The position numbers and the translations under genes are program-made. Of a stretch of 64,000 bases of DNA, positions 1 through 61,945 are shown piece by piece (positions within the stretch are counted from its first letter, which is position 1; each line of letters opens with the position of its first letter). This stretch comes from Torpedo marmorata (Eukaryota). The notes under the pieces are model-generated. The model ran no database searches, was not told where the DNA came from, and saw only the letters and a program-made list of their open reading frames with translations. Location: positions 26,350,001-26,414,000 of the forward strand of contig OZ360243.1 of NCBI GenBank assembly GCA_977017645.1, written 5' to 3'.

Positions 1-415
1 TTGGAAATCTGATGTAGATTTAGGGTTAGGAAGATGGCATGCAGAACTTCGTTCGTGTATACCACTTGAAAAAATTACTTATAATTTACCTAATAAGTAC
101 ATTTCTTTTTTAAAATTTGGAGCCCATATATGAAAGTTGTTGGTTTAAGGATTTGAAGATCTCTGGATATCGGATCTACTGGCGTACCTAACCTCCATAA
201 TAGAATTAGTTTATAGATTTAATTTTTAGATTGACATTCTCCTTACTCTATTTTTTTTTCTTTCTTTTATTTTTATTTTATTACATTAGTAGGGATGGGA
301 GGGTTAGGGAGGGGAGGGTGGTGAAAATATATCACAAGTATTTCGATAATTTTATATTTTATCTTATGTATTTTGTGATTTAAAATTTTAAATAAAATAT
401 ATTTTTTTTAAAAAG
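1..415 (+). mobile_element. L1/Tx1-clade LINE 3' end (ORF2 C-terminus, 3'UTR, A-rich tail)
   Basis: WKSD...[18 protein letters not shown]...KIWSPYM...GLRI*, homologous to 4800-5240; AATAAA. Confidence 0.93.
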
Positions 416-439
416 AGTGTCCCTTCAGAGTGTCCCTTA

Positions 440-487
440 GGGTAGTACTGGCAGACTCATTTGTAGTTGTCTCTGTAGTTGTTTTTT
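440..487 (-). pseudogene. PTS micro-exon 5' part (EKTTTETTTNESASTT) running into the L1 tail
   Basis: ttttcag acceptor at 488; no strong donor before the L1 poly(A) near 415. Confidence 0.55.
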
Positions 488-2468: not shown

Positions 2469-2697
2469 AATGTTTCGATCAAAAAAATTGTGAAAGATTC
2501 AATAATTATGCCATTAACCAATGATATCTACTGAAAATGATGGTGAAGTGCCAGAAGAGCACAAAAGTGGAAGTTGCAATTGAACGAATGAATCAAGTTA
2601 CACATTGACAAAAATGAACACACACCCGTGGTGGAGGGAGTGGTTCTTGTTGACACCGTGGTAGTTGTTTCTTTGTAAAATAATTAAGGTATTCAAA
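2469..2697. repeat. Left copy of a perfect 229-bp direct repeat flanking the L1
   Basis: Base-by-base identical to 5239-5467. Confidence 0.95.
2626..2670 (-). CDS. muc19: PTS micro-exon type B ([15 protein letters not shown]), identical copy 2 within the 229-bp duplication
   Basis: Identical to 5396-5440, with the same splice sites. Confidence 0.55.
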
Positions 2698-5600
2698 CTG
2701 CTATTATTACAGTTATACCAAAAAAAGATAGAGATGTATTAAAAACTGAATCATATAGACCTATTTCTTTATTAAATGTAGATTATAAGATTATGGCAAA
2801 AATTTTGGCTAATAGAATAGCTAAATATTTGCCAAATTTGATACATTCAGATCAAGCTGGTTTTATTAAAAATAGATATTCTAAAGATAATATAGCTAGA
2901 TTATTAAGTTTAATTAATTTTCATAAAAAGAAACAAGATTTACCATTGGTGATTACGTTGGATGCAGAAAAGGCTTTTGATAGATTAGAATGGAATTTTT
3001 TATTTAAGGTATTAGAAAAATTTGGTTTTGGGAATACTTTTATAAATTGGATTAAAACTATATATAAGGAACCTACAGCTAAGGTAATTACAAATGGACA
3101 AATATCGTCAAAATTTTCTTTAACGCGTTCTACAAGACAGGGTTGTCCCTTATCACCAGCTTTATTTGTTTTGGCAATAGAACCTGTAGCTGAATTGATT
3201 AGGACAGATCCTAATATAGTGGGGATTAAAGTTGGTATAGAAGAGCATAAGATTAGTTTGTTTGCAGATGATGTATTAATATATATGACAAAATCAGTTT
3301 CATCACTTCAACATTTAGCTATTATATTAACAGAATATGGTGAAATTTCTGGATATAAAATTAATGCGGATAAAAGTGAAATAATGGCTTTATCTCAAGG
3401 TGATTATACTAGATGTAAAGAAGTTACGGAATTTAAATGGGCAAAAGAAGGAATTAAATATTTGGGAGTAAAAGTAGATACAAAATTAGAGAATTTATAT
3501 AAATTAAATTATGTACCCTTACTTACAAAAATAAAGAAAGATTTGGAAAATTGGAAAGATTTACCTATAACTTTAATGGGGAGAGTAAATTGTATTAAGA
3601 TGAATATTTTTCCAAGAATTCAATATCTTTTCCAATCAATTCCTTTTGGAATTCCAAAAAATTTTTTTAAAGATTTAAAATTTATAGTTAGGAAATTTTT
3701 ATGGAAAGGGAAGTTAGCAAGAGTGAGTATGGAGAAGTTAACATGGAATTATGAGATGGGAGGTATGCAACTCCCTAATTTTCAATATTATTATAAAGCA
3801 GCTCAATTAAAATTTGTTAATGAATTTTTTGATTTAGTTAAAACTTCTGCTTGGATTAATATAGAATTAAATAATATCGGAGAAAATTATAAGGAGGATA
3901 TTATTTATAAGTGGAATTCTAAATTATTATCAGTTAAAAAGAAAAATTCACCGATTATTAAACATTTATTGGATATATGGACAGAGGTAGATAAAAGAAT
4001 AGGTGGGAAAGGTAAGATTTCATTAAATATGCCAATATATCAAAATCCACTTTTAACGTTTTCTATGAATAATCAATTATTAAAAATATGGTTTCAAAAA
4101 GGTATTAAAAATTTTAAAGATTGTTTTGAAGCTGGAAGATTTGTTACATTTCAAAGACTGAAAGAAAAATTTGATATATTAGATAATACATGGTTAGTCT
4201 ATTATCAGATTAAAGCTTTTCTAGTTGAGAAATTAGGAGATAATTTGATTACTCCAAGATATAATGAGTTGGAATTATTAATTACTAAAACAAATATTAA
4301 TAAGTTTATTTCTCAAATGTATAAATTACTTCAGAAAAAAATGCCTAAAGTAGGGTTACATAAATCAAGATTAAGATGGGAATTAGATTTAAATATTAGT
4401 ATAGATCAAAAACATTGGGAGGATTTATGTAAGTTAAGTATGACTAAAGTTATTAATGTTAGGTATAGATTGGTACAATATAATTTTTTTCATCAATTAT
4501 ACTTAACACCAAAAAAACTAAAGAAATTTAATCCGGCATTGTCAGATTTGTGTTTTAGATGTAAGAATGAAGTAGGTTCTTTTGTTCATTCTACATGGTC
4601 ATGTCCTAAGATTCAAGATTTTTGGTTTAAAGTTAAGGATTTTTTAGAAAGAGTTTTCAATGTTAGGTTTTTATTGGACCCTATGTTATTTTTATTTGGA
4701 GATATTAGAAAATTTAGTATTAGGAACAGATTGAATATGTATCAGGTAGAGTTTTTACGTATTGTTTTAGCGGTTTCAAAAAAATGTATCGCTATTACTT
4801 GGAAATCAGATTTAGATTTGAATTTAGATAGATGGCATGCAGAACTTCGTTCATGTATTCCTTTGGAAAAAATTACCTATAATTTACGGAATAAATATCA
4901 TTTATTTTTAAAAATTTGGAGCCCATACATGAGGGTTATGGGTTTGAGGATTTGAAATTTTTTGGGAACTAGGTCTATTGGCGAGTTTAACCTCCAGATT
5001 AGAATTAGTTTTTAGATGGCTCTCTCCTCATTATTAATCTCTTTCTCTTTTTCTCTTTTTTTTCTTTATCTATTTTATTTTTAGTATAGTGGGACTGGGG
5101 GGTTGGGGAGGGGTGGGAGGGAGTGGGGGGAGGAAATTTATATCACTGTATTTTGGAATTATATATTTTGGATTCTGAATTATGTATTATGTGATTTTAA
5201 AAATTTAAATAAAATAATAAAAAAATAAAAAATAAAAAAATGTTTCGATCAAAAAAATTGTGAAAGATTCAATAATTATGCCATTAACCAATGATATCTA
5301 CTGAAAATGATGGTGAAGTGCCAGAAGAGCACAAAAGTGGAAGTTGCAATTGAACGAATGAATCAAGTTACACATTGACAAAAATGAACACACACCCGTG
5401 GTGGAGGGAGTGGTTCTTGTTGACACCGTGGTAGTTGTTTCTTTGTAAAATAATTAAGGTATTCAAAACATCAGAAACAAATCTGTACCTTAACTACTCA
5501 AGCAGTGGAATACGAGTTTGTAATGCACAGGAAAATAAATATGAGAAAATAAACTTGTTTGTGGTCATTGAGAAAAGGTAACACTAACCAGGTGTGTAAC

Positions 5601-8600
5601 TGGTGGTCGACTCTGTTGTTGATGTTGTTGTTTTTTCTGCAAATGAATGATGACACCATCATTACATTTAACTTGGATAACACAAATCAAGAAGTAGAAA
5701 ATAACTCAGGAGATATTGCACAAATTAAAAGATATTGTGCATATTACTATCAGCAAAATCACTCAAAACAGAAATATTATTTATTGTATAAATCATTGCA
5801 TCACAAGTCATTTCTGCATGAAATCTGCATCACTTGGTGAGTGAGGAAAACACCCCCTTTACTAAACTAGAATATAGTTTGCAATGAAAATCCTTGAAAA
5901 TTAAAAAACAATACCGTATTGACAGAAGATCGCACAAAGGCTATTGCAGCCTTTCCTCTATGCTGGTAATGTTCTTTTTTTAACTTACAAGCACATATTA
6001 GCATAGTTGGGTTAAAATATCTATCAATGAATAATGAGAGAAGACATCACTCACCAGATGTGTAACTGGTGGTAGATTCAGTTGTGGTTGTCTGTGGAGT
6101 TGTTTTTTTCTCTTCAAATAAAAATGTTGGCATCCATTATATTTAAAGAAGAATAACCCAATTGAAACAGTACTAACAGATATAAGAGCGAAATGTGAAC
6201 TTTCGGGCATCCAAATGCAACTATGCACTAGCCATAGCATGTTTCTAACAGCCACTTTGATAGCTTGGCCTCAATGTGCCAATAAAGAACTTCATTATCA
6301 GGTCAGCTCCTGCAGTTCAACATGTCACCTTTATACATTTGTATAATGAAAAGAAAATGGTGACATTTTACAATGCGTGTTGTTGCCAATTTACAATGAG
6401 GAAACACTGAAAATATGGGGATTCAGAAAAGGCAAAAATAGTGAACTTCACAATGCTCATTTTACAGATGATTATACTGAAGCATCAAAACTGTTGTAAT
6501 CAACAAGACAACAACTCTTTTCAGTTATTCCTACCATCAAGAAACCTAGTGCAATATATTATGGATGGATGTCCAATGCATTGTTCAGTAAGTTACTACA
6601 AATAACATAATGAGTTAACAGATTCAATATTTAATGACTTCTATAAAAAAAATGTACAAAGTAATTGTAGCAAGTGACTCAAATTTATAATAGGCATCCA
6701 TATTGAACTGTAATATTTACTAGGCTTTTTATTTGCATTACAAACAAACTCTACATCAAATATGTATCACATGGTGCACATGAATGTTAGCCTTATTAGC
6801 TTGCCCAGGAGGGTGTCACAGTCAGAAAGTTGTACTGCAACAAAATGCGACCTTGGACCCACCACATCCCTACCCCCCTAATTGTCCACCCACATGAATT
6901 CCAATTGCATACATTTGGACTCTATTCTTCGAAGACTCCTTGACTGAAAAGTCTGTATCTTCAACGTTGTTATTATATCTGATTCCAACATCTCCTTCTG
7001 ATATCAACTGATCCCAATGTAATTAACCTCAACCCTCAGATTTCCTTAACAAATTGTTCCTCTCATCTGAAATCTTTGCCCACTTGTTTTTGACACCAAA
7101 CCATGGATGGAAGATTTTGACTGACCTCTCTATGATGCTTACAATCTTTTATACGTCACTTCAGCCTGCTTTGCCAAAAGAAAACAGGCTGAGATTATCC
7201 AATCTCTCCGTACAACTAGAATCCTCCAATCGAGGCAAAATCACGGAGAAGATTAACTTCTCCCTGTACATGACAATATTTGTCATATATTAGTAACAGA
7301 GTTTGGAAAAAATTTCTGCATCTTTAATAAATTTGCCACAAGTTTTAATACTTCGGCCAACACATAGTCACAAACCCAGTTTTAGAACTGAGGCAAAGGC
7401 TGCTTCCCTCACATTATGCCAGATCAGCATTCAACTGAACAAACTGACCAGTACATCTAATAGTGAGACATAGACTACTGAGCTAAAATTGTCATACTGG
7501 AAGCAGAGAGAATGAATGCCAAATACTGAATATGAATTTATGATGTAGACAAAAGATGTAATAAAAGAAATCCGTTGGTGTACATCATGAAAATTTCGTA
7601 GTTACCAGTTGTGGAACTTGTGGTAGACTCAGTTGTGATTGTTGGAGTCGTTGTTTCTTCTGCAAACAAATGATTGCACAAAAATTACATCGAAATTCCA
7701 GTAAAACACATATCGGAGAGAAAAACTAGCATATATTGCACAAATCAAAAGTGTGCAAATCAACAACAGAAAAATCACTTCAAGCAGAAATAGTATGTTG
7801 GGTGTTTCATCTGGTGTCACAAGCAAACTATGCATTGAACCTGCACAATTTTGGGAAGATAGAATAGGAAACCCCTGTAGTACACTAGAGTTCAGTTTAC
7901 ACTATCAGTTATAATGCTGACAATTCATTAGACACACAAAGACAATTGAAACAGCTGTTTTTTACTCAGTGCTTTGAAGTCGTTCATCTCTGCTGATTGT
8001 GGTCACAATAAAACAAATGTAGTTGTAGAATCTTGTCCAGTATGTGAATGCCACAGCACACTCATAGAACCAGACAAACATCGAGGGCAGAAGATCAAAC
8101 ATTGGGCACTGCTGCACTTCCCATTTCTTACACTTGATGATATCAAGGTATAACCCACAAGACGATGAGCTACTGAGCTTAAATTGCTCAAATTGTGTAG
8201 GTTGGTGTTGTGGCTGTTGTACCTTCTGTAAACCAATCATTACACCATCATGAGATTCAATTTGAAGAACACATATCAGAGAGAAGCAACAGAAACAGCA
8301 AATAGGAACATTAAAATGAATGTGCAAATTAATTGCACCAAAATTACTCCAAACAGAAACAATATTAGTTGGGTATTTCAACTGTATCTGAAGCAAACTC
8401 TACATTAAATCTGCACAATTTTGGTCAGATTCAAGGAGAATCCCCTTCAGTACACATGAGTCCAGTTTACACGGCCAATTATAATGTTGAGAAATCATTA
8501 AAAACTTAAAGACAAGAAAGACAACAGAACATACTTGGGGAAGGATGCTGGACTTCGGAAGTCCAAAATACAGTTACAGAGAGGGGAGTTGAGGTCACTA

Positions 8601-11600
8601 CAGTTCTCAGTTTTGATTCCCTCTCACTCAGCCTGTATGGTTCAGTATGGTGGATCAATACATTCATGGCAATGACCACTGCACTTTGAATTCAAGTTAC
8701 ATGATCAAATATCCATGAAAGACTTTTTACTCAGTCTGACACAAGATGGATGATTTTAGTAATTTTCATTCAACGAAGATGAGTCCAAATTACTTCTGTA
8801 AAATTATTGCAGAACAATTCTTACAATATTTAGATGAACAACCATTGCTCTCCCCTAGCAATTATATTGATGTACCAAAATGGAAGTAAATGAATTTTAT
8901 TGGCATTTAATGAAGTTGCAATTGAAGGAATGAACAAAACTGGCAATTATACACACACCGAGGCAATGACTCACCTGCAATGGAGGGAGTGGTGCTTGGT
9001 GTCACTGAGGTAGTTTGTTGTTCTGGAAAAAAATAGAAGGATTCAGAACGCATTCATCTCAGTACCTTAATTATCCAGCAGTGCAGATGCAGAAGCAAAT
9101 GCAAGTTGTGTGGAACAAACTTGTTACACACTGCAAGTGCAAGTGTTCGGATTGATTTGCATTTGTCAAAGCTCTGCCTAACTTTCCACTTGCTCGATAT
9201 CTTGCTGGAGCCTTAGTCAAACTACCCCACAATCCACTGCGCCATCAATTGCTCTGTCATCTACAAACTTACTACGGTAATTATTTCTTCCACATTCATT
9301 TCCAGGTTAAAAGATACGACAATCTGAAACATTCACTGCAGTTCTCCATTTTGATTCCCCTTCAAGATCTCTGTCTGGTGGATCAAGATGTTAATGGCAA
9401 TGACCAAAAGCCTACGACCACTCCACTTTGCATTCTAGTTGCATTATTAAATATCCGTAAGAGACTTTTTAAAATCAGCATGACACAAGCTAGCTGATTT
9501 TGGTCATTTTTGTTTAACAAAGATGAGTTCAAAGTACTTATGTAGAAATTATTGCAGAACAATTTTTACAATATATAGACCAGGCGTGGCCAAATTTCCT
9601 TAACGCAAGAGCCACAGACGATAAACTTCAGATGTTGGAGAGCCGCGTCATGAAAAAAATATTACATACACGTTTTTACTTTTGCATGCACATTTTGTCA
9701 CAAAAAGTTTATATAAATATTAAGAATTACATGTTTGAAATAATATTTATTAATGTATGTCGTTTTTAAACTGCTAATTTGTATTAGTTTCAATCATCAA
9801 AAAGTACACATGCAATAGACAAATTTTGTGGACCAATTTAGGGTAAAATTTGGGCGGTCGACTATTACATGCATACAACTTTTGAATGTGGTAAGTACTT
9901 GCGTCGTTTTAGGCGTTAGGAGCTTGGAAGGGCGGGCGGGCGGTCTGGGCCTGGTGGTAAGTCCACAGTCGGGGAGTCGGATGGCCAGGACTGGGTGGTA
10001 AATCCGCAGTCAGGGCGTCGGGAGCTCAGATGGGCGAGCGGCCAGGGCCAAAAATAGGGGGTTAGGGTTAGGCCTCGACTATTACACGCGTATATACGTG
10101 TATATATGGTATACATACCAAATATTTTCAATCGCAAGCCATGTGCACTAAAATTACCATTGTGAGCACCAGCTCGTACAATTCATGTCTCAGCCAACGT
10201 ATTTCCATGAGCAGTGGCGGATTAACCATTAGGCTGAGTAGGCTGAAGCCAAGGGGCCCGGAAGGTAAGGGGGCCTGGCGCATTATGGTCTGATTAAACT
10301 GACTTAACAAAAACAATGAGGCTCATTACTCAGCCTAATGGTTAATCCGCCACTGGTTGTAGAAGCGTAAATTTGACACCTTGTAGCCATGCCAGTTTAT
10401 TAAAAGAATGTCCATTAACCCCAGGCAGACTACAGCGCCAGCGATCGGGACAGGGGTTCGAATCCCACGCTGTTTGTAAGGAGTTTGTACGTTCTCCCCG
10501 TGTCTGCATGAGTTTTCCCCGGGGGCTCCGCCAGGATTTCTCTGATATTTATTTGTTGAACCTGCCAGATTGCAAGAGACCCCCGAACTGCACCTGAGCT
10601 AGTGGCAGCGCTGTCACTGGCCCGTCTTTGTCTGGTTGCACTGGGTGTCTAAGATTTTTAGAAACACATTTGCGGTGCATTTCAGCAGCAGCGGACCCAC
10701 GGGCCAGGTATAGAAGACCCGACCACGTGGACACAGAGGGGGGCTACAGGTCAAACTGAGACGCGGGGACCTGAAGCTTCCGCTCCCTACCATCCTCCTG
10801 GCCAACGTACAATCCTTGGAGAACAAACTTGATGAACTCCAAGCCAGACTTCAACATCAGAGAGTCATTAGGGATTGCTGCGTGATGTGCTTTACAGAAA
10901 CGTGGCTAAACGTGGACATTCCGGACACGGCGCTGCAGCCCAAGGGCTACACCCTCCATCGCGCTGACTGAACATGAATAACCAGGGGAGGCGGCGTTTG
11001 TGTCATCATCAATCCATCGTGGTGCACAGACGTGACGGTCATGTCCTAGTCCTGCTCCCCCGACCTGGAACATCTGGGGATCAAGTGTCGCCCATTCTAT
11101 CTGCCGAGGGAGTTCACCGCCATCATCCTGGTCGCAGTGTACATTGCGCCCCAGGCTAACGTCAGGCTGGCACTGGAGGGACTGAGCACTGTGATAAACA
11201 GCCATGAGACAGCACATCCTGATGCCTTCCCGATCATTGTGGGAGACTTCAATCAGGTCAATCTGAAGAAATAACTGACAAACTACCACCAACACATCAC
11301 ATGCGAGACCAGGGGAACCAACACACTCGGCCACTGCTACACCACCGTGAAGAACGCATACCGAGCCAAACCACGACCGCACTTCGGCAAGTCTGATCAC
11401 CTGGCTGTACTTCTACTCCCGGCGTACAAGCAGAGACTGAAGACCACAGCACCAGTGGTGAGGAAGGCGAAAGTATGGTCGAGGGGGGCGGAGGAGCGTC
11501 TGCAGGACTGCTTTGAATCGGTGGACTGGAACATATTCAAGCACTCAGCCACCGACTTCATCAAGACCTGCGTGGATGAGTGTTTGCCCACGTGCAAATA

Positions 11601-14600
11601 CCGGGTGTTCCCCAACCAGAAGCCCTGGATGAATCAGAGAATTCGCAACCTGCTGAGGACGAGAACAAGGGCGTTTAAGGCCGGGGACCTGGATCTTTAC
11701 AAGAAGTCCAGGCACGACCTGCACAAGGCCATCTCTGAAGCAAAGTGGCAATTCCGAAGGAAGCAAGAGACAGAGACAGATACACGCCAGCTATGGCAGG
11801 GAGTGCAGGCCATTACAGCCTACAAAGCGAGGGCGAACACTATAGACGGCTGTGATGCTTCGCTACCCGATGAGCTGAACACCTTCTATGCCCGCTTTGA
11901 GAAGAAGAACAAAACAGTGCCTACTAGAATCCCTGAAAAGGCTGAGGACCCTGTGATATCTGTCTCTGAGGGCAACGTCAGAACATCATTCAAGAGGGTG
12001 AACCCTCGCAAGGCGTCAGACCCTGACGGCGTACCTGGCAGGGTACTGAAAATCTGCGCCAACCAACTAGCCGGAGTGTTCATGGACATTTTCAACCTCT
12101 CATTGCGGCAATCAGAGGTTCCCACCTGCTTCAAAAGGGCATCAATCATCCCGGTACCCAAGATGAGTAGTGTGGGCTGCCTCAACGACTACCGCCCAGT
12201 AGCACTAACTTCTACTGTGATTAAATGCTTTGAGAGGCTGGTCATGGCCAGAATTAACACATACCTAAGCAAAGATCTGGACCCACTGCAATTCGCCTAT
12301 CGTCACAATCGCTCCACAGCAGATGCAATATCGCTGGCTCTCCACTCAGCTCTGGATCACCTCGAAAACAGCAATTCATACATACGGCTGCTCTTCATCG
12401 ACTACAGCTCGGCCTTCAATACCATTATTCCCTCAGTGCTGGTCAAGAAGCTACAAACTCTAGGCCTCTGTACCCCCCTCTGCAACTGGATCCTTGACTT
12501 TCTCATCGGAAGACCACAGTCAGTACGAATTTGAAACAACGTCTCCTCCTCACTGATTATCAACACAGGCGCACCCCAAGGATGCGTGCTTAGTCCACTG
12601 CTCTACTCGTTATACACCCATGACTGTGTGGCCAGGCACAATTCCAATGCCATCTACAAGTTTGCCGATGACACCACAGTTGTCGGCAGAATCACAAACG
12701 GCAATGAGGAAGCGTACAGGAGGGAGATAGATCAGCTCGTTGAATGGTGTAATGGCAACAACCTTGAGCTCAACTTCAGCAAAACCAAGGATTGTGGACT
12801 TCAGGAGGAAGTCAGGGGAACACGACCCAGTCCTCATTGAGGGCTCAGTAGTGGAGAGGGTCAAGAACTTCAAATTCCTGGGTGTCAACATCTCCGAGGA
12901 TCTGTCCTGGAGCATCCACGTTGATGCAATCACAAAGAAGGCTCGTCAGCGGCTATACTTTGTGAGGTGTCTGCAGAGATTCGGTATGTCACCGAAGACT
13001 CTCGTAAACTTCTACAGGTGTACCGTGGAGAGCATTCTGGCTGGTTACATCACTGCCTGGTATGGAGGCGCCAACTTCCAGGACAAGAGTAAACTCCAGA
13101 GGGTTGTTAACTCGGCCTGTGACATCACAGGCACCAAACTTCACTCCATCGAGGACATCTACATGAGGCAGTGTCTTAAAAAAGCAGCTTCTATCCTCAA
13201 AGACCCCCACCACCCAGGCCATGCCCTCTTCACTCTGCTTCCATCGGGAAAAAGGTACAGGAGCCTAAAGACGAGCACTCAACAGCACAAGGACAGCTTC
13301 TTCCCCGCTGCCATCAGATTCCTGAATAATCAATGAACCAAAGACACTGCCTTACTTTTCGTGCACTATTGTTTATCATTTTTTATAGTAATGTCGTAAG
13401 ATGGTTAATATGAATGTTAATTGCACTATGATGCTGCCGCAAAACACCGAATTTCATGACTTGTTCATGACAATAAATTCTGATTCTGTTTCTGATAACG
13501 CTAGTGCGTCTGTGAGTCCGTAGGCCGGCACATAACTGGCAACTTGCGCTCACTGCCTCCTTCGCCAGCGTCTGCTGGGCGAAACTGCGCAAAATCCACA
13601 AGCTATGTCTGTGCTCGGGCCCAGACCCAGACCCAGCGAGATTCCCCTTTCCCTGCGGCCACATTGCGTTCAGCCGGTGCTGGCCAGGCAGCCGAGTAAC
13701 CCCGATGGCTGCAGCTCGCAGCTGGTTACTTATGACGCCCTTTGCAGCTGCTGCAACAAGTGAACAACTCTCTCCGAGTGGTCATGGCTAAGAGATCGGT
13801 GGGTTGTACTTGACAGTTGGATGTGTTACCAATGGGGAACATTTAGAAACAACAAGCAGGGAGATAGTCTTTTCCAGCATTGTCAACGCTTCGGGAGAAA
13901 AGGGGGGGCGAAGAATGGATTTGGGCAAGAGGGTTCGAGTTGGGACCGGTTGGAGGAAGCCGGCCGGTGTCGGGACTGTGCGTCTGAAGTCGCGTCGGGG
14001 TGGCTCGCAGATGCAGACGCAAATGCAAGTTGTGTGGAACAAACATGTTACACACTGCAAGTGCAAGTACACACTCCCTCAAAGGTCAAATTACCTGAAG
14101 AGACTTGTTTTGGACCTTGGGGTGGGAGAGGGAAGTTATGATTAAAGCTTTGCTGAAAAAAGGCATCACTCACCAGTGGTGGAAGTGGCAGTGGACTCAG
14201 TTGTGCTGGTGGTTGTTGATATTTCTTCTGAAGGGAAACAAAAGCAATAACATTTCATTCATTCACATCGACTGGTAGATTTTGTATCACTGTCAAATTC
14301 AGTGGATATTTTTCAATGTTGAAGGGATTGCTCACAGTCGAGAAAAACCTCTTGCATTAATTATCATCTTTAGAAACTCAAAGGACTATCGACCAATAAA
14401 TGGTTTCACAATATAGTCATTGCTTAAAATTTGAACACAGCGAATAATTTATGAACTGCCCATCGTAAAAATGTAACATATTGTGTGTAAAAATTATTTT
14501 CTGCGAAATGTTGGTTTTATCATTGCTATTAATCAAGAGGATGGAAATGTTTACTAGTCACTTGCTGCAAGGTTTTGTACATCTGAAGCAGCAGCAGACC

Positions 14601-17600
14601 CGGAATAATATCTGAGGCAGAAGATCAAATATTGGGCACTGCTGCACTTCCTTTTCTTCGTCTTGAGTCTCCTCAAGATACAATGCAAAAGACGATATCA
14701 TAACATAAGAACATAAGGAATCGGAGCAAGAGTAGGCCATTCAGCCCGTCATGCCAGTTCTGCCATTCAATGAGATCATGGCTGATCTCATGATAGGCTC
14801 AACTCCACCTACCTGCCTTTTCCCCATATCTGTTAATTTCCCCTACCAGGTAAAAATTTATCCAACCTTGTCTTGAATATATTTAATGAGGTAGCCTCCA
14901 CTGCTTCAATGGGCAGCAAATTCCACAGATTCACCACCCTCTGGGAAAAGCAGTTTTGTCCTAAATCCACTACCCTGAACTTGAGGCTGTGTCCCCTAGT
15001 TCTAGTCTCCCCCAACAATGGAAACAAATTACCTACCTCTATCTTATGCCTTTCAAAATTTCATACATTTCTATCCCCTCTTATTCTTCTAAATTCTAAG
15101 TCCAAGACAACTCAATCTCTCCTCATAGGCTAACGCCCTCATCTCTGGAATCAACCTGGTGAACCTTCTCTGAACAGTCACCAAATCCAGTACATCCTTC
15201 CTCAAGTAAGGCGACCAGAACTGTATACAATACTCCAACATGAGTTTCTGAGCTAAAATTGCAGACTAAAGATGAAAGGATGAAATCCAGATAATGAAGA
15301 TGAATTGTTCTGCATAAGAAAATGGATTTGATAACAGAAACCTGTTTGTGTACATTGAGGGAAGAGATCACTCACCAGCTGTGGAACTGATGGTAGATTC
15401 AGTTGTGTACATTGGTGTTGTTGTTTCTACTGGAAACCAATGATCACACCATCATTACAGTCAATTGGAAGAATAACATATATCAGGGAGAAACAACAGT
15501 AACAGCATAGAACCACAAATTATAAAAGAGCGTACAAATTAATTTGAGCAAATTCACTGTAAACAGATACAATATTAGTTGGGGATATCACCTGCATCTG
15601 AAGCAAACTCTGCATTAAATCTGCACAATTTTGGTCAGATTTAAGGAGAATTCCCTTCAGTAGACTAGAGTCCAGGTTACATGGTCAGTTATAATGTTGA
15701 CAAATCATTGAAAACTAAAAGACAACATAGTCACCAGAACATTCTTGGGGCATTGCATCCCTCCATCTGTGCTGGTAATGGTCAAAATACAACAAACAAG
15801 CATAACTGTGTTACAATATCTGTTAATCTTAACGAATTGAGAGAAGACATCACTCACCTGTTGTATAAGCGGTGGTAGACTCAGTTGTTGTTGTCTTTGA
15901 AGTTGGTGATTCTTCTGCAGAAAAAGGAGTTTTCACGTCCATTATATTTCATTTCCAGAATGACTCAATATCGAGCAAAGTAACAGAAATAAGGTTAATT
16001 GCATGGAATAAACACAGAATGTGCTGAATAATTGCAGCAAGTGACTAGAAATTGACAGTCATCATTATGCATTTATTCTGCATCTCAAACAACCTCAAAA
16101 TCAAATGATTGTCATGTATGTGCATCAAATGTCAGCATGAGTGTAAGTCTCATTCAGCATTCTGTCAACCAGTTGGAGTCATGGACATAGAGTTGTACAG
16201 CAGAGAAGTGGTCCCGTCAGCCCACCTCATCAACACCAGTCTTGGCAACATCCTGCAGAGTCTTTTCCACACTCTCTTCAGCTCAATGATATTCGCGTCT
16301 ACAACGCACCACCTTACACTTGTTTGGATTGATTGGCATTTGTCAAAGCTCTACCTCACTTTCCACCTGATCCATATCTTGCTGGAGCCTTAATCAAACC
16401 ACCCCACAATCCACGGTATCACCAATTGCTCTGTCATTTACAAACATACTACTCATTCCTTCACATTCAACTCCAGGTTAAAAGATGCGACATTCCAAAA
16501 AATTCACTGCAATTCTCCGTTTTGATTCTCAAGTTCTCTGCATGGCTCAGTATAGTAGATAAAGATGATGATGGCCAAGACCAAAAGCCTACGATCATTG
16601 TATACTGAATTCAAATTACATCATTAAATACTCATGAGAGACATTTTACTCAGTGTGACACAAGCCAGCTGAATTTAGTCATTTTCATTTGACAAAGATT
16701 AATTCAAAGTACTTCTGTAAAATGTATTGCGGACCAATTCTTACAATATTTATATCAACAACCATTGCAGATGCAGAAGCAAATGCAAGTTGTGTGGAAC
16801 AAACTTGTGACACACTGGAATTGCATAAACACTCTCTCAAAGGTTAAATTACCTGAAGAGGTGTGTTTTAGATCTTGCGGTGGGAGAGGGAATTTGTGTT
16901 CAAAGCTTTGATGAAAAAGGCATCACTCACCAGTGGTGGAAGTAGTTGTGGTCTCAGTTGTGCTGGTGGGTGTTGATGTTTCTTCTGAAGGGAAACAAAA
17001 GTAATGACATTTAAATCTTCTATCTAGACTGGGAGATTTTGAATGACTGTCAAATTCAGTAGATATTGCACAATGTTGAAGTGATTGCTCATGGTATAGA
17101 AGAGTGTCTTGCATTTCTTATCATCTTTTCAAACTTAAGTCAAGTCAAGTTTATTGTCATCTGATTGCACAAGTACAACCCAACAAAACAGCGTTCTCCA
17201 GTCCTCGGTGTAAAACATGCAGACACACAACTAGACGTGACACACAAACAATATATCTGCAGTACAAGTATTCATATATACAAATAAATAAATACATTTT
17301 GTTTAGTAAATATGAGAGTTTTGGATGGTTAGTGTGAGCAGTTCCATTGGTCGTTCAGCATTCTCACTGCCCGCAGGAAGATTCTATTTTTCAGCCTGGT
17401 GGTGCTGGCTCTGATACTCCTGTATCTCTTTCCCGACAGTAGCAGCTGAAAGATGCTGTGTGTGGGGTGGAAATTGTCCTCAATGATTTTGTGTGCTCTC
17501 TTCAGTAACGATCCCAGTTGATCATGTCGATGGGTGGAAGGGAGACTCCAGTGATCCACTCAACCACTCTAATGATCCTGTGGATTGACCTCCGATCCAT

Positions 17601-20600
17601 TTCTCTGCAGCAACCACACCATACTGTGATGCAGCCAGCCAGGACACCCTCGATATAGCTCTTAATGGTGGCTTGTAGCCTTGCCTGCTTCAGTCTTCTC
17701 AGGAAGTGCAGTCGCTTCCTGACACGTGAGGAGGTTTTGTGTGTCCACGATAGATCACTAGTTAAGTGAACTCCAAGGAACGTGGTCCTCTCCACTCTCA
17801 CCACGACAGAGTTATTGATGTGTAGTGGAGGATAGTCATTTCTGGTCCACCTGAAGTCCACGATCTTCTCCTTCATCGTGTCCATGTTGACACTAAGGTT
17901 GTTACTCTCGCCCCATATCACAAGACTTTCCACCTCTTTTCTGTAGTGCAACTCATTGTTGTTGCTGATGAGGACAACTACTGTTGTATCATCTGCAAAT
18001 TTATAACCCTGTTGGAGCTGGATCTGGCGATGCAGTCATGGGTCAGTAGCATGAAGAGGACTATCAACCAATAAATGGTTCCAAAATATAGTCATTGGTT
18101 AAATTTGGTCACACAGCATTTAATTGATGAACTGCCCATTCTAAAAAAGGAAACATTTATTGTGGCTAAAATCTATTTATTGCAAAATGTTGGTTTAATC
18201 ATTGTTATTAGTCAAGGTGGTGGAAATGTTTCTGGTCACTTACTGCAAGATTTTGTACATCTCACACACCAGACTCACAGACCTGGACTCACAACTATGC
18301 AGAATGTCAAACATTTGGCACTGCTGTACTTGCTTTGTTTTGCTAGTATGATAACATGAGCTACTGAGCTGAAATTGCAAGACTGAAGAAAAGATGAAAG
18401 CCAGTCATTGGAGATTAGTTGTTGTGAATGGACGTGATTCAAGAAACATTGAGAGAAGATGTCACCCATGATGGTGTAATCATTTTATTCACAGAAGAAC
18501 AACCGCACTGATGACAACAACTGAGTCTACAACCAGTCTCAATTGTGGTTGTCAGCGCGTTTGTGTCTTCAGTGAAAAAAATGATGACACCATCATTACA
18601 TTAAACTTTGGAATTATATTGATGTACCAAATGTAAAACATATTTCTTATAATTGAACTTTAGTGAAGATGGAATTGAACAAATGAACTCAATAGCACAC
18701 AAACTTACAAGGATCCAGTTTTCACTGCCAGTTACATTGCTGCTAATCACTACAAAAGGGACAATTTTGACAGCTTAACATGCTTAGTGTGTTACAGCCC
18801 TTCATCAGTGTTGACAATACAGTAAAAGTCCAAAAATCCAGATGCCAGAAATCCAGACCACCCAAGAATCTGAACTCCTCGAATACTCTCAAACGTTTTA
18901 AATTTAGCGGGCTTTTGTGTGTACGTGCGTGCTAAGCACCACAGATGCATAGAAGTCGCAGAAATTAACAAATAAATATTAACAGTATTTTCTTTTTTTG
19001 TATTTTGTATTTTATATGAAAACATGTTTCATTAATAAACTATCAAAATTTACCTACTCATATCTTCTTTATTCTCCTTAAATTTGAATTTTAAAGGTAC
19101 TGCCCAAGAATCCTGAAAATCTGAAAAGCAAGTCCTACCCAATCCCGGACCAATCCTGCAATTTGGTTTTTATGACTTTTACTGTAGTCAGTAACAACAC
19201 ATGAGTTTGTGGTATATCTAACCAAAATTGTGCTAAAATATCTGTTGAAAAATATTGAAAGAAGTTTTGTCTCACCAGTTGTGTAACTGGTGGGAGACTC
19301 AATTGTGGTAGTGTCTGTAATTTTTGTTTCTCCTGCAAATAAATACATTCATGACCATTTCATTCCATATGAAAAATAACACGATTGAGACAGGAGTAAC
19401 CTAATCAATATTTATTGTGTGGATTAAAAGAGAACACGCAAAACAATGCAGCATTGACTCAAAATTTATGATCAGAATCTATATTCAGCAGTAGTATTCA
19501 CTGGGTGTTTAATCTGTATCACAAAAAAAATAGACCACATGAGTATCATGTGGTGAGCCTGAGTATGTGCATCATTCATCATGCTGTTGTCCATTTGCAG
19601 TCATAGTCACGGAGTTGTACAGCAGAGTATTTGGCCCTTCAGCTTTCCTGTCCTGGTTTACATTTTTGTCCATCTCCACTCATCTTATTTGACACATTCA
19701 AGGAACAGTGGTCCTAATCTGTAGGTTTCTCCATTCATCAACCTTTCTTCATCCTCCAGCACTTAAAGTCCACCCCAATTTGATTTCTAAAATGTCTGAC
19801 ACAAGTTGGTTGATTTTAGATGTCTGTTTAAAGAGGAGTCAAAACAACTTGTGTGGAAATTGTTGCAGAAGTTTTCTTTCAGTATTTAGTGCAATGCCCT
19901 CTATTGGGAATTACAGTGAAGTACCAAGAGGGCAAATGAATGAACTTTTATTGAAGTTTGATGGAAGTTACATTTCAGCAAATAAACCTCATGAATGTCA
20001 ATTACACACTGACAAAGGCTATCACTTACCTGTTGTGGAGGGGGTGGTGCTTAGTGTCACCGTGGTAGTTGTTTCTTCTGGAAAATAATAAAGGCAGTCA
20101 AAACACAAGAACCAAATCTGTATCTTAATTTTGCCAATATGCTGATTCATATGCAAACATAAGTTGTTTGGAACAAAATTGATTTATATTGCAAGTGTAG
20201 ATCTGCTCTATTACCCTTATTAATCAGATTAGCTGATGAGAAATGGACTGGAAGAATTAACTTGTGTTGAAAGATCTGGAAACGTTTCTCGAAAAAGGCA
20301 TCACTCACCAGTTGTGGAATTGCTTGTGGACTCAGTTATGCTGGGGGTGGTAGATGTTTCTTCTCAAGACTCCATCAGGCTGTTGTTCATTGACTACAGC
20401 TCGGGTTCAACACCATCATACCAGCAAAGCCTTTGATCAAACTGAAGGATCTGGCACTCCATTTGTCCCTCTGCAACTGTGTGCTTAATGCCCTACTCTG
20501 CTCTTTGTACACTCATGACTGTGTAGCCAAATTCGGCTCCAACCTAATCCACAAATTCACTAACAACACACCGCTGTTGGCTGAACTACTGGAACTGATG

Positions 20601-23600
20601 AGTCAGAATACAGAATGGAGATTGAGAATCAGGTTGGGTGGTGCCAGAACAACAACCTTGCTCTCATTGTCACCAAGACCAAGGAGCTTATTGTTGATTT
20701 TAGGAAGGTGAGGCCAAGGGACCACGCACCTGTCCGCAATCATGGGACAGAGGTGGAGAGGTTTGAAACCTTCAGGTTCCTGGGAGTCCATATTTCAGAA
20801 AACTTCTCCTGAAATATGGACTCCCAGGAACCTGAAAGCACCTCAAAGCAACCAAGAAGAAGACACAGCAACACCTCTACTTTCTCAGGAGTCTGAGGAG
20901 ATTTGCCATATCGTCGACTACTCTATCAAACTTCCACAGATACACTGTGGAAATTATACTCACAGGTTGCATTGCAGCCTGGTTTGGGAATTCCACTGCC
21001 CAGGAACACAGAAGGCTCCAGAAGGTAACAAACATAGCCAGGTCCATCACAAGCTCCAAACTCCCATCCATTGAATGCTTTGAGTGAGGCTCTGCCTCAA
21101 GAAGGCAGCCAACATCATAAAGAATCCCATCACCCTGGTCACAACCTCTTCTCATTGCTACCTTCAGGCAGAAGTCACAGAAGCATGAAGAACAGCACCT
21201 CTCGGTTCAAGATTAGTTTCTTTCCAACAGCTATCAGGCTTTCGAACCTCCCCATGTTACACTACTCAGAGACTTCTCCTACACCAAAAAAGGACTATTT
21301 GCCAAGTCACTTTGTATGTACTTGGATAACTGTGAGTATTTATTACCTGTGTCTTTTTGTATTATTGTCTCTTTTTAATTCAATTAAATAAACTATTGTG
21401 TCTGTAGTTGTTTTTACAAAGTACCTGTTCAGCTGCAGCAAGAAAGAACTTTGAGACCTATGTACATTGTACAATGTTTATGACAGTAATCTCATCATCA
21501 TTATCAAGAGAAACAAAAGCATTGACAATAAATTCATCCATCATGCCTTTTTTGACTTCAATATTTATGCTGTTGCTCATTCAGTTTGGCTTGCTTTCCT
21601 GAATGGTACTCATCAGGTAATACCCAGATACAGAATGTGAGGAACATTCTGATTTGCATTCATTCATATCATCATAATTTGGCTGTGCTAGCAGCTCGAA
21701 GCCCAGGTATGACCTGCAATTTTGCATTGACCTTCAGTTATAAATAAAAGTTCAGACTATTTTCTCATCCAATGAAGCAAAAGGTTTGCTTTTGACAACA
21801 GCAGCTGCTTTTGGCTTAGTCCTGTGAGGCAGGTGGGTTTTGGGGCAGCAGCAGTGGTGAATGTGACTGGAGATGAGTCAAGTTGGCTGAATCCTACTTT
21901 TGACTTGTGGAGCCAAGAGGGACAAACACCTTTTCTCAGTGGGGTTTGGCATCTCTTTCAGACCCTGAAGATCTTATCAGAGTATAATTGCTAATTATCA
22001 ACATCATCAAACGTGTTGGAATATGACAAACTGTTTGTGATTCCCATTTTGTGAATATTATTTCCTAAAATACAGACATATTGATATCCTGTTTCACCCT
22101 TAGGTCTTACTATTTTTTCTTATTATTTTGCAAACATTACTTCCTGTTAATCATCATTTCACAATTGCCAATAGTTATTTTAACTGAGTTCTTTCATATT
22201 TTTGTCTCTTTGAGTTGGTAGAATGGCGAAGTACATTTATATTTTGTCATATTACTTTGTGAATATGTTTTGTTTATTAAAATTGAAAACTTATCTCTCT
22301 ACCTGTGCTGGTGATGGTTGAAGAAATTGTTGAAGTTGATGTCGGTAGCGTTGTGGTCAACAGTGTTGTCGATGGAACAGTTGTGGTGGTTCGTCCTGTT
22401 ATGAAAATGCACACAATAAAACTGTGCTCCTTATCTATTTGTGAATATTCTTTAAAGTACCACTCAGGAAACAAAAATTCACTCTTGTCAAATTCACAAA
22501 TCACTACTCAAAAATTAGAGATGCGGAATAAAATTCCTCTCATGTAATATACATGGGAAAACAAACAAACAAATATATAAATAAATGACAGAAAATACTC
22601 AAGAAACAACAAATTTTATTTTTATTTTTTTTGTCATAATTCTGTAAGCTAAAATGTTTTCAATATAACATTACTGCGCCAATTGGGTTGACACTCGCTG
22701 CCTCAGTAGAGCAGCCAACATACTGAAAGACCCATTCCACCTTGGACATCATCTGTTTGAGCTGCTGCCCTCTGGTAGACGCTTCAGGTCCATTAAATCA
22801 CAGACAAACAGACTTAAGAACAGCTTCTACCCCAGAGCCATATCAGAACTGAACACTGCCAAGCACTGACACCGATTGGTTGGGATCTGTGTGACTATCA
22901 GCACTACAATACTGTACTTCAGTCACACCTAAAGAACAGTTGTATACAAATACAACTGCACCTTTTTATGTATATATTTCGGACTGCATTATTTGTATAT
23001 AGAGCCACTACATTACAACTGCACTTTTGTATGTAAATATTCCCAACTGCACTACTTGTATAGAGGGCCACTGCAATTTTCAATTCCAGTAAATGTGCAA
23101 TATCGAGAAGTGCAATATCTCAATATCTCAGTTGCTTTTGTATTGTTTTATATTTTATTGTTTTCATTTTTAATTGCTGTTTGATTTGTGTGAATGCACC
23201 GTTAGGATTGCTAATTAATTTCATTGTACTCTGTGCAATGACAATAAAGGAATATCTATCTAATCACAGCTAAGTCCCTCCTTTGACATCCCTTTTCCAG
23301 TCTGAGAACAGACGTCTCACAGTGTGTAGCTGCATTGTGGGGACCAACATGAGCCATGGCCAGTTCCTTAAAATAATCCCTCTGTCTTTGCTCCACTTCC
23401 ATTAAGTCACCATGCTTTAACCAATTGCCCCGGAACTCCTTCTTCACTATCTTTCTCCTATGAACCCCAAATCTCAAATCCCAACCCTTTTCATGATATC
23501 CTACTTCCTGAACTTTATCCTAATCATCATAGGCAAAGAGCGAAGCAGCACTGCAGTCTGAGACACCTGTTCACATGTCCTCTGATTGGAGAGGGCATGG

Positions 23601-23779: not shown

Positions 23780-26700
23780 GTGTATTGGCTTAGTCAGCAA
23801 TATGCACATCTATGAGATCAAGAAGAGATCACTTTAGTGCTGTACCTTCTGAAATAAAGATATGACTGCAACTGTTCAGTTGCCATGTTAATGATCAATA
23901 ATAAATTATTTCCATTGACAAGAAAGATCTGTTATTGAGAGTTTGTACTGTTGATGGTAAATCACATCTGCAATATCTTCAGCAGAAGGGCTGTTGATAT
24001 TGTAGAACCATCATATGAAGTGTGAAAATACCTCATACGCTGTTTTTATTTCAGATTTTCCATTGATTTCCATCAAATCTTTGATGAAGATGGAGAAGCA
24101 AAACGTGGCTCAAAATGGAAGAATCAATTTAAAGACAACCCGATTGATCCAGACATTTATCCAACTGTATTTCTGTCACACCAAAATGAATACCTCCTGA
24201 CATTAATGTTGCACTGCAAATTAGCTAATGATGAAAAAAAGTAATTCATTGCACATACTAATTCTTTTAACATTACTCACGTCGGCAAGTAGTGATTCCG
24301 TCCTTGCATATACTGTAAATAAAAAACAAAGCTATTACAACAATAAAGAGCTCATTAGGTGCAGTGGTTCACCCTTTCTGGTATGATTAACAACAAACAG
24401 GAAGCAGAAAGGAAAATTATCAGCTCTAAAATGATCACCTTTGGAGGTTTTTAAAATACAGGGTGTAATGTATGGTTTGAGTGCTCAATCTGTTCATAAC
24501 TAATTGCAGATTGTGCAAGAAACATGAAGAACTTTAATAAAATTTGTTGGTTTAGTTTTGAGCACCTCAGATCTCCTGGAACTTTCTACAGAACATTACT
24601 GCAACTTAAGGAGAAATTCCTCTGAAAAGGGGTGATATCCTGAAGTGAAAATACATTTTTCACAATTTCATGTCACACTGACAGAGAGACAGAGTAATGA
24701 GAATGACATGATGATGAGATGGACTCCCAGTAGAAGAATAATCAACTGAATCGTATGGGGTAGAGAGAACAAAGAAAGTAAAGGTTGTGAGCAGACTTTG
24801 TTTGAGAAACAGAAAGTTAACAGTACTGCAGAACAAAGGAGGGTGGTGGGGGTGAAACATGTTGAGGACAATTATTTTGGCCTTTGTTCAGATGGAAAAT
24901 TATCACAGACTGCATTTTATATATCAATTCTTAGAATATCTATTTTAGAAGCTCATGGGACTATTTGGACATCATAATATATTTTTATGTTTTATTTTAG
25001 GTAACTAAAAGTTTAAAATTTACTCACATGATTAATCTAAATCAGAATATGTCAAATACCTTTGTATCTGAATTCATAGTGGGTTATTTCTGGTTCATAA
25101 CAAAATCATTTCTCAGACTTAAATGTTTATGACTCAATTTACTTATTTATGGCATTTTCAAGAGAATGGTTACATATGTAAAAGATTCAAAACCTACCGT
25201 ATATTTCGGCGTATAAGTCGACCCTTGAAACCCTCAAAAATGTCTCAAAAAACGGGGGTCGACTTATACGCCGGATATACTTTTGAGACCTTAAAATCAG
25301 CTCAAAATCGAGTTCACGCCGATTCGGCGTATAAGTCGACCCCTGAAAACACGATTCGGCGTATAGGTCGACCCTGGAAGTGCCTCCCCACTGCCGGCGC
25401 CGCCGCTCCCCGACACCTCCCCACCGCCGGGCGCCGCCATAAACCACCCAGACATTCTACAATTGTAGAGCCCGAGGTCCCCGCTCCTACCCGGGAGAAC
25501 GAGCTCCCCGCTCCTGCCTGGGAGAACGAGCTCCCCGCTCCTGCTCGGGAGAACGAGCTCCCCGCTACTGCCTTGGAGAACGAGCTCCCCGCTCCTGCCC
25601 GGGAGAACGAGCTCCCCGCTCCTGCCTTGGAGAACGAGCTCCCCGCTCCTGCTCGGGAGAACGAGCTCCCCGCTATTGCCTTGGAGAACGAGCTCCCCGC
25701 TACTGCTCGGGAGAACGAGCTCCCCGCTCCTGCTCGGGAGAAAGACGTCGCCGCACCTGCATCTTCCCGGCCAGAAGCAAAGGTTTTTTTTACTGTTTTT
25801 TTTACTTACCGGTACTTGCTTAATTTACAGCTTTGTTACTTGGCGATTGGGATGTTGTAACAAATTTTGGGTTGTTGCTGGGAGGCCCAGACAGCCTGAA
25901 AATTGGGGGTCGACTTATACGCCGGTCAATGCGCAACATCTCAGGCATCCCGATTTTTGGGGTCGACTTATACGCCGGATATACCATAAAACCATTAAAA
26001 TGAGGCTGAAAAAGGGGGGTCGACTTATACGCCGGTCGACTTATACGCCGAAATATACGGTAATTTTATTATAATTATATATATTTTTTGCTTTCATTGG
26101 AATGGCGATAAATATTCAATGATCTGGCTACTTTACCATTCTTCACAATCATTCATTGTTGTTTCACCAGGTTGCAAAATTCTTCCGTCATAATAACATG
26201 TGCACTGAGGTAATGTTACACATTTCATAGTATTTTCATCCAGGTAAGGAGCCTTCTCTGGGCACTTGGCATAGCAACCTGAAACAGTGAGAAGTAAAAG
26301 TCACAATGGAGACAAACAAGAACTCAATGAATACTATAAATCTTGAGGCCAATGTTCCACTTTAAAAATGCATGGTTTTCCCCTGAATGACTACCTTAAC
26401 AAATTAACTTCCACTACCCAATCCTCCATTGTTTTGGGCCTTGTGTTGCCAGGTTTAGTCACAGCATGACAGCACACCTCCGCTGGCTTCCCTGGTGCAT
26501 GAACTTTACTATTTTAATTGTAAGCTACAAAATGTTGACATACTTCTGTGTTCCACACATTAATAGGAGGGTTTATCCTTTGGAGACAGAAAACATTGAA
26601 CACATGAATAATTGAATCCTCTTACACCATGATAGAAAAAGGAAAAAGGGCACTCTCTTGTGAAATCAAATGTGAAGATCCGTAAAAGCCCATGTGACTA

Positions 26701-60308: not shown

Positions 60309-61945
60309 CTAGCAGAAAATATGTTTAAGATTGATTCAGTTCACATAAAAGATGGGAGTTCAAAAATTTTCTTTCCAAATCCAATGATTATTTCTTTTCA
60401 CTGGGCACTCATCGTGGTTTCAGTAATTTTATTAATTAATTTTGACAACAATATCAACCATTTATTTTAATCATAAACAGAAGCATTACCTTAGTCATAT
60501 TATGACATTTTTATGAGGGGCATAATGTTTCAATTTGATGTAAATACAAATGCCACATCTTAACTTTTCATCAAAACCAAAGATTTTATGTTAGATTGCT
60601 TGATGCGAATGGAAAAAAAGGTAAAGTCTTTATTCTCTTCACTGCCTCATGCAAAATATAGTCTTAATTGGCTGTTATATATAAAAAATGTATTTGAATT
60701 TCTCCTTATAAAAGGATATTCACTCTATTATTTGTTTTGAAAATTAACGTCCTAATTATTCTCCAATGAGATGATAAAAGGTGATAGTGTGCTGACCTTG
60801 CAAGACAAATTAATTACTATGATAGGGTCCAGAAAAAAAACATGCCCCTCTTTGCTTGTGATGTTGTGTCAAGTATTAATTAATCATAATTATCCTAATT
60901 GTAACACCTTAGTACCAATTTTCCTCATCTGCCCAGCTTGTATGTAAATAATGCATCATGTATTAATGTATGATTTGCTTGGAATCACCTAAAGCTACCT
61001 GTAAACTTGGTACAAGTCCACTGAGTTACTGGTTGGAACTCTTGTTTGTAACTTTTCAGTTAGTGTTACTTACATGCAGCATTTGAATGATTGCTAAACA
61101 CAAACTGCAACTTTGAAGGAATAATGACCTGGCAAATACTGTCTTCTGTGGAAATTATTTATTTATTTTATCCCCTTGTGAGGTTAATAAATTGCTTTCT
61201 CACTGGCCTGAGACATCTGTCTATGGAAACCCTCAAAAGTTAGCATTTTGGCAATAATAGTGTGCGTTGATTTCCTTGATCAATTTATAGTTGTGGGGTG
61301 AATCCATTGACGTGGAATTAGTTTACCATTTTCAATAACCAAAGAAAGGAAGCTTGCTGGAAGACCCTGGCGTGAGACAGCAGAAAAACAATGCCTTGAA
61401 CAGGGGAAAGTAATGGAATTAGCCACATTAGTCAGTGAACTGTGCTGGGAAAAAACATAAAAGTAATCTTTCCAGAGGAGAAAAAATAGGCCATGAACAT
61501 TGTGTGCAAACTGGCATAATTGAAAATCCCAAATAGAAAATGCTGATGGAACATAAGCCTAATTAATATCACGATTTCAGCATTCTAAATTATAACTTAC
61601 CATAGTTGTTCATTGAATAGTCCCATTGAGTTAGTTTATGGGCAAAGATATTATCTGTGTTAAACAAAAATTAACGTTAATCAAATGATCTAAGAAATTT
61701 AAATTTTATTATTTATTTATGACTGAATAAGACAGACTTTTTAATTATTTTGTATAATTCTACAGAGATACTAATATGCAAGCCAATGAATAAAAATACA
61801 TTATGAAAGACTTTTATATTGGCTTTAACAAAGAGAAAATGAAAATCACTTAAACATACAAAATGAGAAATTCAACAACATATATTCATCCTTTAATATC
61901 CAAGTATAATTATTAACTGTGTGCCTGCTGAGTACCTGGCAGTCC

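Follow-up and report, generated by a model that had tools for sequence, protein, structure and literature searches.

A predicted MUC19-clade mucin of Torpedo marmorata with a Thr/Ser-rich domain divided among 109 phase-1 micro-exons

A protein domain that is divided among many small exons, each of which could be omitted without disturbing the reading frame, raises the question of whether the division serves alternative splicing or is simply the form that tandem exon duplication leaves behind. The question is posed here by a mucin gene in a stretch of 64,000 nucleotides (nt) of Torpedo marmorata DNA, referred to below as the window (positions 26,350,001-26,414,000 of contig OZ360243.1, here C57, in a genome of 6.2 Gb). 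An initial annotation of the window described a proline/threonine/serine-rich (PTS) domain made up of one 93-nt exon and 13 micro-exons, and proposed that these form a combinatorial splicing system which tunes mucin length and glycan density. The reading that we hold, with moderate confidence, is that the gene is a MUC19-clade gel-forming mucin whose Thr/Ser domain consists of 109 phase-1 micro-exons, that unequal crossing-over between units of exon and intron probably raised their number, and that they are probably joined for the most part in genomic order, a cassette being left out now and then without loss of frame.

The array of micro-exons

The exons in the window lie on the minus strand, where the 93-nt exon at 22303-22395 is followed by 13 micro-exons of 45 nt (two), 48 nt (three), 54 nt (five) and 57 nt (three), all of them bounded by AG and GT. 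These were recovered by a scan in which boundaries were picked by splice-site strength alone, with the length left free between 36 and 99 nt and the phase also left free. Between 2626 and 22395 all of the calls (13/13) are multiples of three nucleotides (3n) with phase 1; the plus strand produced no calls, and 20 shuffled sequences produced one. The exon structure that had been claimed is thus borne out exactly, but not all of the 13 cassettes are healthy: exon 20309 is separated from its own polypyrimidine tract by a long interspersed nuclear element (LINE) at about 20368-21500, exon 2626 is a duplication copy, and three more cassettes in the window are damaged. Because every cassette is 3n with phase 1 and all 8 of the 8 possible cassette junction codons are sense codons, with no stop among them, any subset can be skipped in frame, as the annotation had supposed. 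Phase-1 introns also flank the array, both between the last exon of the D3 assembly and the 93-nt exon and at the entry into the CysD exon; the phases of the gene's remaining introns are mixed. The features of the window are as follows, with residue matches given relative to the orthologue in Narcine.

24281..61655, minus strand: D1-D2-D'-D3 region, 27 internal exons and one upstream exon partly mapped (spliced model, Pfam VWD)
22303..22395, minus strand: first PTS exon, 93 nt, phase 1-1; 28 of 30 residues match
20309..20362, minus strand: micro-exon, 54 nt; acceptor AG retained, polypyrimidine tract displaced by the LINE
20030..20077, minus strand: micro-exon, 48 nt (scan); 12 of 15 residues match
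19276..19332, minus strand: micro-exon, 57 nt (scan)
18468..18612, minus strand: damaged cassette, 3' part inverted, splice site lost
16931..16984, minus strand: micro-exon, 54 nt (scan); 16 of 17 residues match
15858..15914, minus strand: micro-exon, 57 nt (scan)
15376..15429, minus strand: micro-exon, 54 nt (scan)
14174..14227, minus strand: micro-exon, 54 nt (scan)
8975..9022, minus strand: micro-exon, 48 nt (scan)
8193..8232, minus strand: damaged cassette lacking its 3' half and donor, splice site lost
7606..7659, minus strand: micro-exon, 54 nt (scan)
6055..6111, minus strand: micro-exon, 57 nt, type A of the repeat unit (scan); 15 of 18 residues match
5589..5636, minus strand: micro-exon, 48 nt, type B, GTTAGT donor (array mapping and splice-site scoring)
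5396..5440, minus strand: micro-exon, 45 nt, type C, GTGTGT donor (array mapping and splice-site scoring)
2698..5238, plus strand: 5'-truncated L1-type retroelement, flanked by an exact 229-bp duplication (2469-2697 = 5239-5467)
2626..2670, minus strand: micro-exon, 45 nt, copy of 5396-5440 within the 229-bp duplication (sequence comparison)
440..487, minus strand: damaged cassette of the 54-nt type, donor replaced; identical lesion in three further copies left of the window
1..439, minus strand: intron at the left edge of the window, past which the gene runs on

The array does not end with the window. It extends about 106 kb to the left, where 96 further micro-exons (C57:26,244,014-26,349,677) all keep the frame and both splice sites, so the 13 described in the annotation are real but are only 13 of 109, and the feature is eight times larger than had been claimed. 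Across the whole PTS interval all cassettes with both splice sites (109/109) are 3n with phase 1, and the same scan finds none on the other strand; 35 are of 45 nt, 35 of 48 nt, 6 of 54 nt and 33 of 57 nt. A cassette homology search yields 120 clusters, which comprise the 109 intact cassettes, three upstream LINE matches and eight pieces of seven damaged cassettes. All seven of the latter lack a splice site, and one donor-destroying lesion is shared by four copies. Inclusion of every intact cassette would give 1850 codons without a stop, of which 47% encode Thr, 15% Ser and 74% Thr, Ser or Pro, and the cassettes encode only 31 distinct peptides, with three dominant types of about 53-73% Thr+Ser.

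Most of the 96 micro-exons beyond the window sit in a unit of about 3213 bp that consists of a 57-nt, a 48-nt and a 45-nt exon together with their introns; the spacing of the type-A (57-nt) exons is 3193-3234 bp in 25 of 29 intervals. The median divergence among 25 regular units, introns included, is 1.4%, with the units at the centre most alike (some are 0-0.2% apart) and two units at the block edges about 5% diverged from the remaining ones. Exon and introns are therefore repeated head to tail at high identity, which is the mark of the tandem arrays in the SmPoMuc genes discussed below. The introns that flank the older cassettes are also homologous to each other, and the model of the Narcine orthologue contains corresponding cassettes in identical order.

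The array is most likely an intron-containing variable number tandem repeat (VNTR) in which splicing proceeds mostly in order and skipping is tolerated. An ancestral phase 1-1 Thr-rich exon would have been duplicated to give several cassette types, and blocks of these types would then have expanded, the most recent being the three-exon unit with its roughly 30 copies; unequal crossing-over of exon-plus-intron units is the likely route of multiplication. Such duplication would spare only symmetric 3n exons, and cassette copies that lose a splice site would drop out harmlessly. D3 and CysD/D4 would in this way be separated by an O-glycosylated spacer of at most about 1850 residues. Differences in its length would arise chiefly among alleles, as they do in mammalian mucins with a single-exon VNTR, and to a lesser degree among transcripts.

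Some minor features of the array may be recorded here. A tandem NAGNAG acceptor is present in 10 of the 109 cassettes, and among the Pristis isoforms one differs by just one residue; the 45-nt type seems to derive from a 48-nt ancestor by loss of its first AG. The 229-bp duplication around the L1 far exceeds the usual length of a target-site duplication and includes an entire micro-exon; another L1, which lies some 49-54 kb to the left of the window, has duplicated roughly half of an exon of this 45-nt type. A retroelement remnant at 850-2230 of the window, which we take from its motifs to be Penelope-like, is also part of the 3.2-kb units and has been amplified along with the exons.

The mucin and its neighbours

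In a spliced model from D1 through the 93-nt exon, 28/28 introns are GT-AG and the 1221 codons are free of stops, and the start-codon exon lies about 4.3 kb to the right of the window. The VWD matches of the N-terminal assemblies fall on single exons; the Narcine orthologue has three VWD, three C8 and three TIL domains. Downstream of the array, a CysD exon, a D4 assembly and a cystine-knot exon occur at C57:26,186,749-26,243,019, as C-terminal exons placed by tblastn and not assembled into a model. The Pfam families Mucin2_WxxW, VWD and Cys_knot score above their cut-offs there, with 60.7 bits for CysD and 26.4 for Cys_knot against a cut-off of 24. Judged by its exons, the gene is an intact-looking gel-forming mucin with D1-D3, PTS, CysD, D4 and cystine knot, for which expression and polymer formation are predicted. 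The possibility that a 9.7-kb array of 24-nt repeats farther downstream is a giant PTS exon of this mucin was rejected, because that array lies between the C8 and TIL exons of D4, is flanked by an L1 poly(A) and an L1 piece, contains L1 sequence and changes frame.

The closest protein match is a mucin-19-like protein of Narcine bancroftii (91% identical over the D1 exon and 94% over D3), in agreement with the chondrichthyan origin that had been supposed. The phylogeny and the LRRK2 synteny that the annotation had proposed as checks both place the gene near MUC19. In a quick IQ-TREE phylogeny of D3 (58 rows, being 57 proteins from 120 listed matches plus this gene; midpoint-rooted, no bootstrap; MUC6, otogelin, VWF, spiggin, FIM-B.1, FIM-C.1 and MucXS not among the rows), MUC2/5 is split from mammalian MUC19 and all cartilaginous-fish rows with an SH-like approximate likelihood-ratio (SH-aLRT) value of 100, and the D3 identity is about 60% to mammalian MUC19 as against 44-49% to MUC2/5. 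Relative to MUC2/5, the D3 sequence assigns the gene to the MUC19 clade. LRRK2 is oriented head-to-head with the gene, some 400 kb away from its start codon, as seen in 10 ARM_LRRK2 matches at C57:26.819-26.895 Mb; the gene survey left out 26.514-26.818 Mb of the interval between the two. Two further markers were uninformative, as Pfam COR-A had no match on C57 and alpha-adaptin matched only contig C78. Placement in a MUC2/5/6 cluster is rejected on the basis of the D3 tree and the LRRK2 synteny. These results suggest that many elasmobranch RefSeq proteins named “mucin-2-like” or “mucin-6-like” are MUC19-clade genes.

Beyond LRRK2, at C57:27.09-28.54 Mb, there are four related mucin paralogues, three of which have micro-exon arrays of their own. 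In these arrays 29/29, 104/105 and 34/34 calls are 3n with phase 1, with one antisense call each, in a scan that covered 30-119 nt and in which the count of 29 may be incomplete, the end of that gene not having been reached. The cassettes differ among the three, being mostly of 63 nt in one, of 51 and 57 nt in a regular 1165-bp unit in another, and of 57-60 nt in the third; the fourth paralogue has larger PTS exons, four of which begin with CysD, in a 2.7-kb unit. The micro-exon architecture is thus kept in 4 of the 5 genes of the cluster. Several paralogue clades in the D3 tree hold both sharks and batoids, and the shark orthologue models, in which exon boundaries were not seen, carry similar Glu-led modules, which makes it likely that the micro-exon design predates the shark-ray split. 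The Callorhinchus protein record has no PTS, so nothing older than the elasmobranchs is shown; the annotation had placed the architecture early in jawed vertebrates, which goes beyond data that reach back to elasmobranchs at most. UniProt A0A401PH36, which is a member of this MUC19 cluster but not the orthologue of this gene, has been reported from dogfish and catshark skin mucus (PMC10707392). The tail of one Narcine RefSeq model seems to be a paralogue's 57-nt cassette in another frame, and is probably an annotation error.

Splicing, copy number and the length of the domain

Symmetric phase is a condition for any tandemly duplicated exon to preserve the reading frame. As tandem duplication would demand it even in the absence of alternative splicing, the phase of the cassettes is no indication of alternative splicing. 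The splice sites themselves were compared by crude scoring of 20 representative micro-exons and the 93-nt exon against 28 constitutive sites. The U1 donor match is 5.5-9 in the cassettes and 4.5-7 in the constitutive sites, with overlapping ranges, and the acceptors have 8-15 and 9-15 pyrimidines of 16, respectively; by these scores the cassette sites look like constitutive ones and are not weak.

Selection on the reading frame is nevertheless visible in the sequence, in that all 109 intact cassettes are 3n with phase 1, the damaged ones lack a site, and gaps in the exons are few. In 11 hand-picked, non-independent pairs of old cassettes, the exons contain 5 gaps in 566 nt, with the frame kept in all pairs, while the flanks contain 68 gaps in 2385 nt, 9 of which are multiples of three; identity is 82% in the exons and 77% in the flanks.

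Several points weigh against the reading of the array as a VNTR that is spliced mostly in order. The allelic copy-number variation which it supposes is inferred from one assembly. Within the young array, variable columns number 12 of 150 in exons and 341 of 3068 in introns, which is a slight difference. Exons as short as 45-57 nt tend in general to be skipped, and RefSeq isoform models, which derive from RNA-seq alignments, contain traces of it in relatives. In Leucoraja, where a cluster of 16 allowed 13 isoforms to be compared with the longest (one shorter record was dropped and one was not listed), all 13 miss blocks of 13, 15, 16 or 17 residues or larger ones, singly and combined, with junctions that are new relative to the longest form. 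Cassette-sized blocks are likewise gone, with new junctions present, in 2/2 isoforms of Narcine and 2/2 of Amblyraja; the Narcine isoforms miss 18 or 20 residues, and 20 residues correspond to a 60-nt cassette of the orthologous paralogue in the present genome. Cassette skipping may therefore be common. These isoforms, which are predicted models of paralogues, favour some real skipping unless the assemblies concerned are collapsed.

The alternative that best survives is that frequent, unregulated skipping produces polydisperse mucin lengths in every tissue, as it reportedly does through alternative splicing of repeat cassettes in Xenopus FIM-B.1; we consider this unlikely, though it deserves serious weight. 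Besides the blocks missing in Leucoraja and Narcine, it can draw on the Pristis paralogue, which has a cluster of 42 members (15 of them listed) with isoform names up to X45, and on Xenopus FIM-C.1, which has been termed polymorphic via alternative splicing (PMC7177656). The isoforms do not, however, belong to this mucin, the splice sites of which are not weak. The Pristis and Leucoraja isoform genes fall in a sister paralogue clade and those of Narcine and Amblyraja in more distant paralogues, and in Narcine, Hypanus and Pristis the orthologue closest to this gene is in each case a single-member cluster. The number of Pristis isoforms was rejected as proof of splicing, because read mis-mapping would give the same pattern: compared with the longest form, 12 of the 14 other listed isoforms are shorter by exactly 37 or 74 residues, that is, by one or two 37-residue periods, and 10 of the 14 contain no 24-mer that the longest form lacks. 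In Stegostoma and S. torazame the isoforms differ outside the PTS, and two S. canicula isoforms were not cleanly alignable.

A broader proposal is that the cluster as a whole constitutes an elasmobranch system, in which four MUC19 paralogues would use their frame-neutral micro-exons, at least 276 in all, in tissue-dependent combinations to give many lengths and glycan loads besides those set by allelic copy number; we regard this as doubtful. The related idea for the present gene, which is that of the initial annotation, is that regulated combinatorial splicing picks cassettes by tissue or state and so tunes length and glycan density. It is possible but unsupported, and we judge it improbable. 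It would be in keeping with the fact that every subset is in frame and stop-free and with the retention of the architecture across the cluster, and a similar idea has been put forward for chicken Muc13 (PMC1552070). On the other hand, the copies of the young array are about 99% identical with their introns, which leaves little for copy-specific regulation to act on, the array carries dead cassettes and transposons along, and no change was seen in the splicing of chicken MUC2 on Eimeria infection (PMC3549977). With three types dominant and only 31 distinct peptides, skipping would in any case alter length more than glycan density.

That the young 3.2-kb array is instead partly passive, being mostly skipped in the mRNA or inflated by assembly so that the expressed PTS is far shorter, is an equally remote prospect: the near-identity of some central units, the AAG acceptor and GTGTGT donor of type C and the unclear conservation of exons over introns within the young array would be consistent with it, but of 300 unit pairs a single one shows no difference in the aligned columns, there are distinct sub-blocks and separate L1 insertions, the assembly of the array has no N runs, and the cassettes left of the window are all intact.

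Known systems and mobile elements

Multi-exon PTS domains are already known from chicken Muc13, Xenopus MucXS and the SmPoMuc genes, and the ray array is a variant of this known architecture. In chicken Muc13 there is one exon per PTS repeat, and both a control of length by splicing and an ancestral multi-exon design have been proposed (Lang et al. 2006, PMC1552070); that protein, an SEA mucin, spans the membrane and carries 12 or more repeats of 20 residues, whereas the ray mucin is predicted to be secreted and gel-forming and has a three-exon unit and 109 cassettes. The SmPoMuc genes of Schistosoma mansoni repeat a micro-exon with its flanking introns in tandem, undergo concerted evolution and differ in repeat number between individuals (Roger et al. 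2008, PMC2576457), but they encode unrelated small proteins and have a 27-nt exon in units of about 1 kb, with at most 20 per gene; exon repetition in their transcripts has been shown by cDNA, while the ray array is described at the level of the genome. MucXS is, like the ray gene, a gel-forming mucin with a multiexonic central domain (PMC5789918). So is chicken MUC2, the PTS of which extends over many exons with one in-frame splice variant (PMC3549977), but MUC2 belongs to another clade of the D3 tree.

The ray gene shares with the MUC19/spiggin clade the D1-D2-D'-D3-PTS-cystine knot layout and the LRRK2 synteny. MUC19 is said to lack a fourth VWD unit and CysD is named as typical of MUC2 and MUC5, while a PTS and a fourth VWD occur in some spiggins and three Muc19 paralogues in C. 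milii (PMC4948705). The mammalian type of MUC19, with neither a fourth VWD nor a CysD, does not describe the ray mucin, which has a CysD and a D4 VWD exon after the array and splits its PTS over 109 exons. In human MUC19 a 30-bp VNTR lies within one exon of about 12 kb (PMC10557577), and a single large VNTR exon is also given in PMC13345508. The annotation had contrasted giant central exons in MUC2, MUC5AC and MUC5B with many small repeat exons in MUC19, a contrast that is partly wrong in view of human MUC19 and chicken MUC2. The available part of a paper on spiggins (PMC2180178) does not mention PTS micro-exons or splicing, and no account of elasmobranch mucin micro-exon arrays was found in the literature searched, which excludes most subscription journals.

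If the array is indeed an intron-containing VNTR, it would represent a second route to a vertebrate mucin VNTR, in which exons are repeated with their introns rather than within one giant exon, and which four neighbouring genes would have used separately. Lang et al. (2006) proposed that splicing can set the length of a PTS domain within an individual, an idea that the array makes directly testable, and the many predicted isoforms of elasmobranch mucins call for caution.

Mobile elements occur in and around the gene. Intronic insertions of LINEs and DNA transposons are present in the window at 9580-13500, 20368-21500, 25190-26060, 31030-32900, 33350-35730 and 44900-47870. The 24-nt repeat that was set aside above is Thr-coding and occupies 9.8 kb of a D4 intron (C57:26,203,037-26,212,895), with the poly(A) of a full-length L1 before it and a second L1 piece after it; it recurs at C41:130.84-130.87 Mb, there in an array of 30 kb or more, and the intronic copy may be a fragment of another mucin-like VNTR that an L1 mobilised. 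Elsewhere in the genome, a VWD-rich cluster at C50:90.2-91.2 Mb is probably the MUC2/5/6 locus, and a tandem array of VWD exons with a 7.9-kb period at C42:61.1-61.25 Mb is probably FCGBP-like, both names being inferred.

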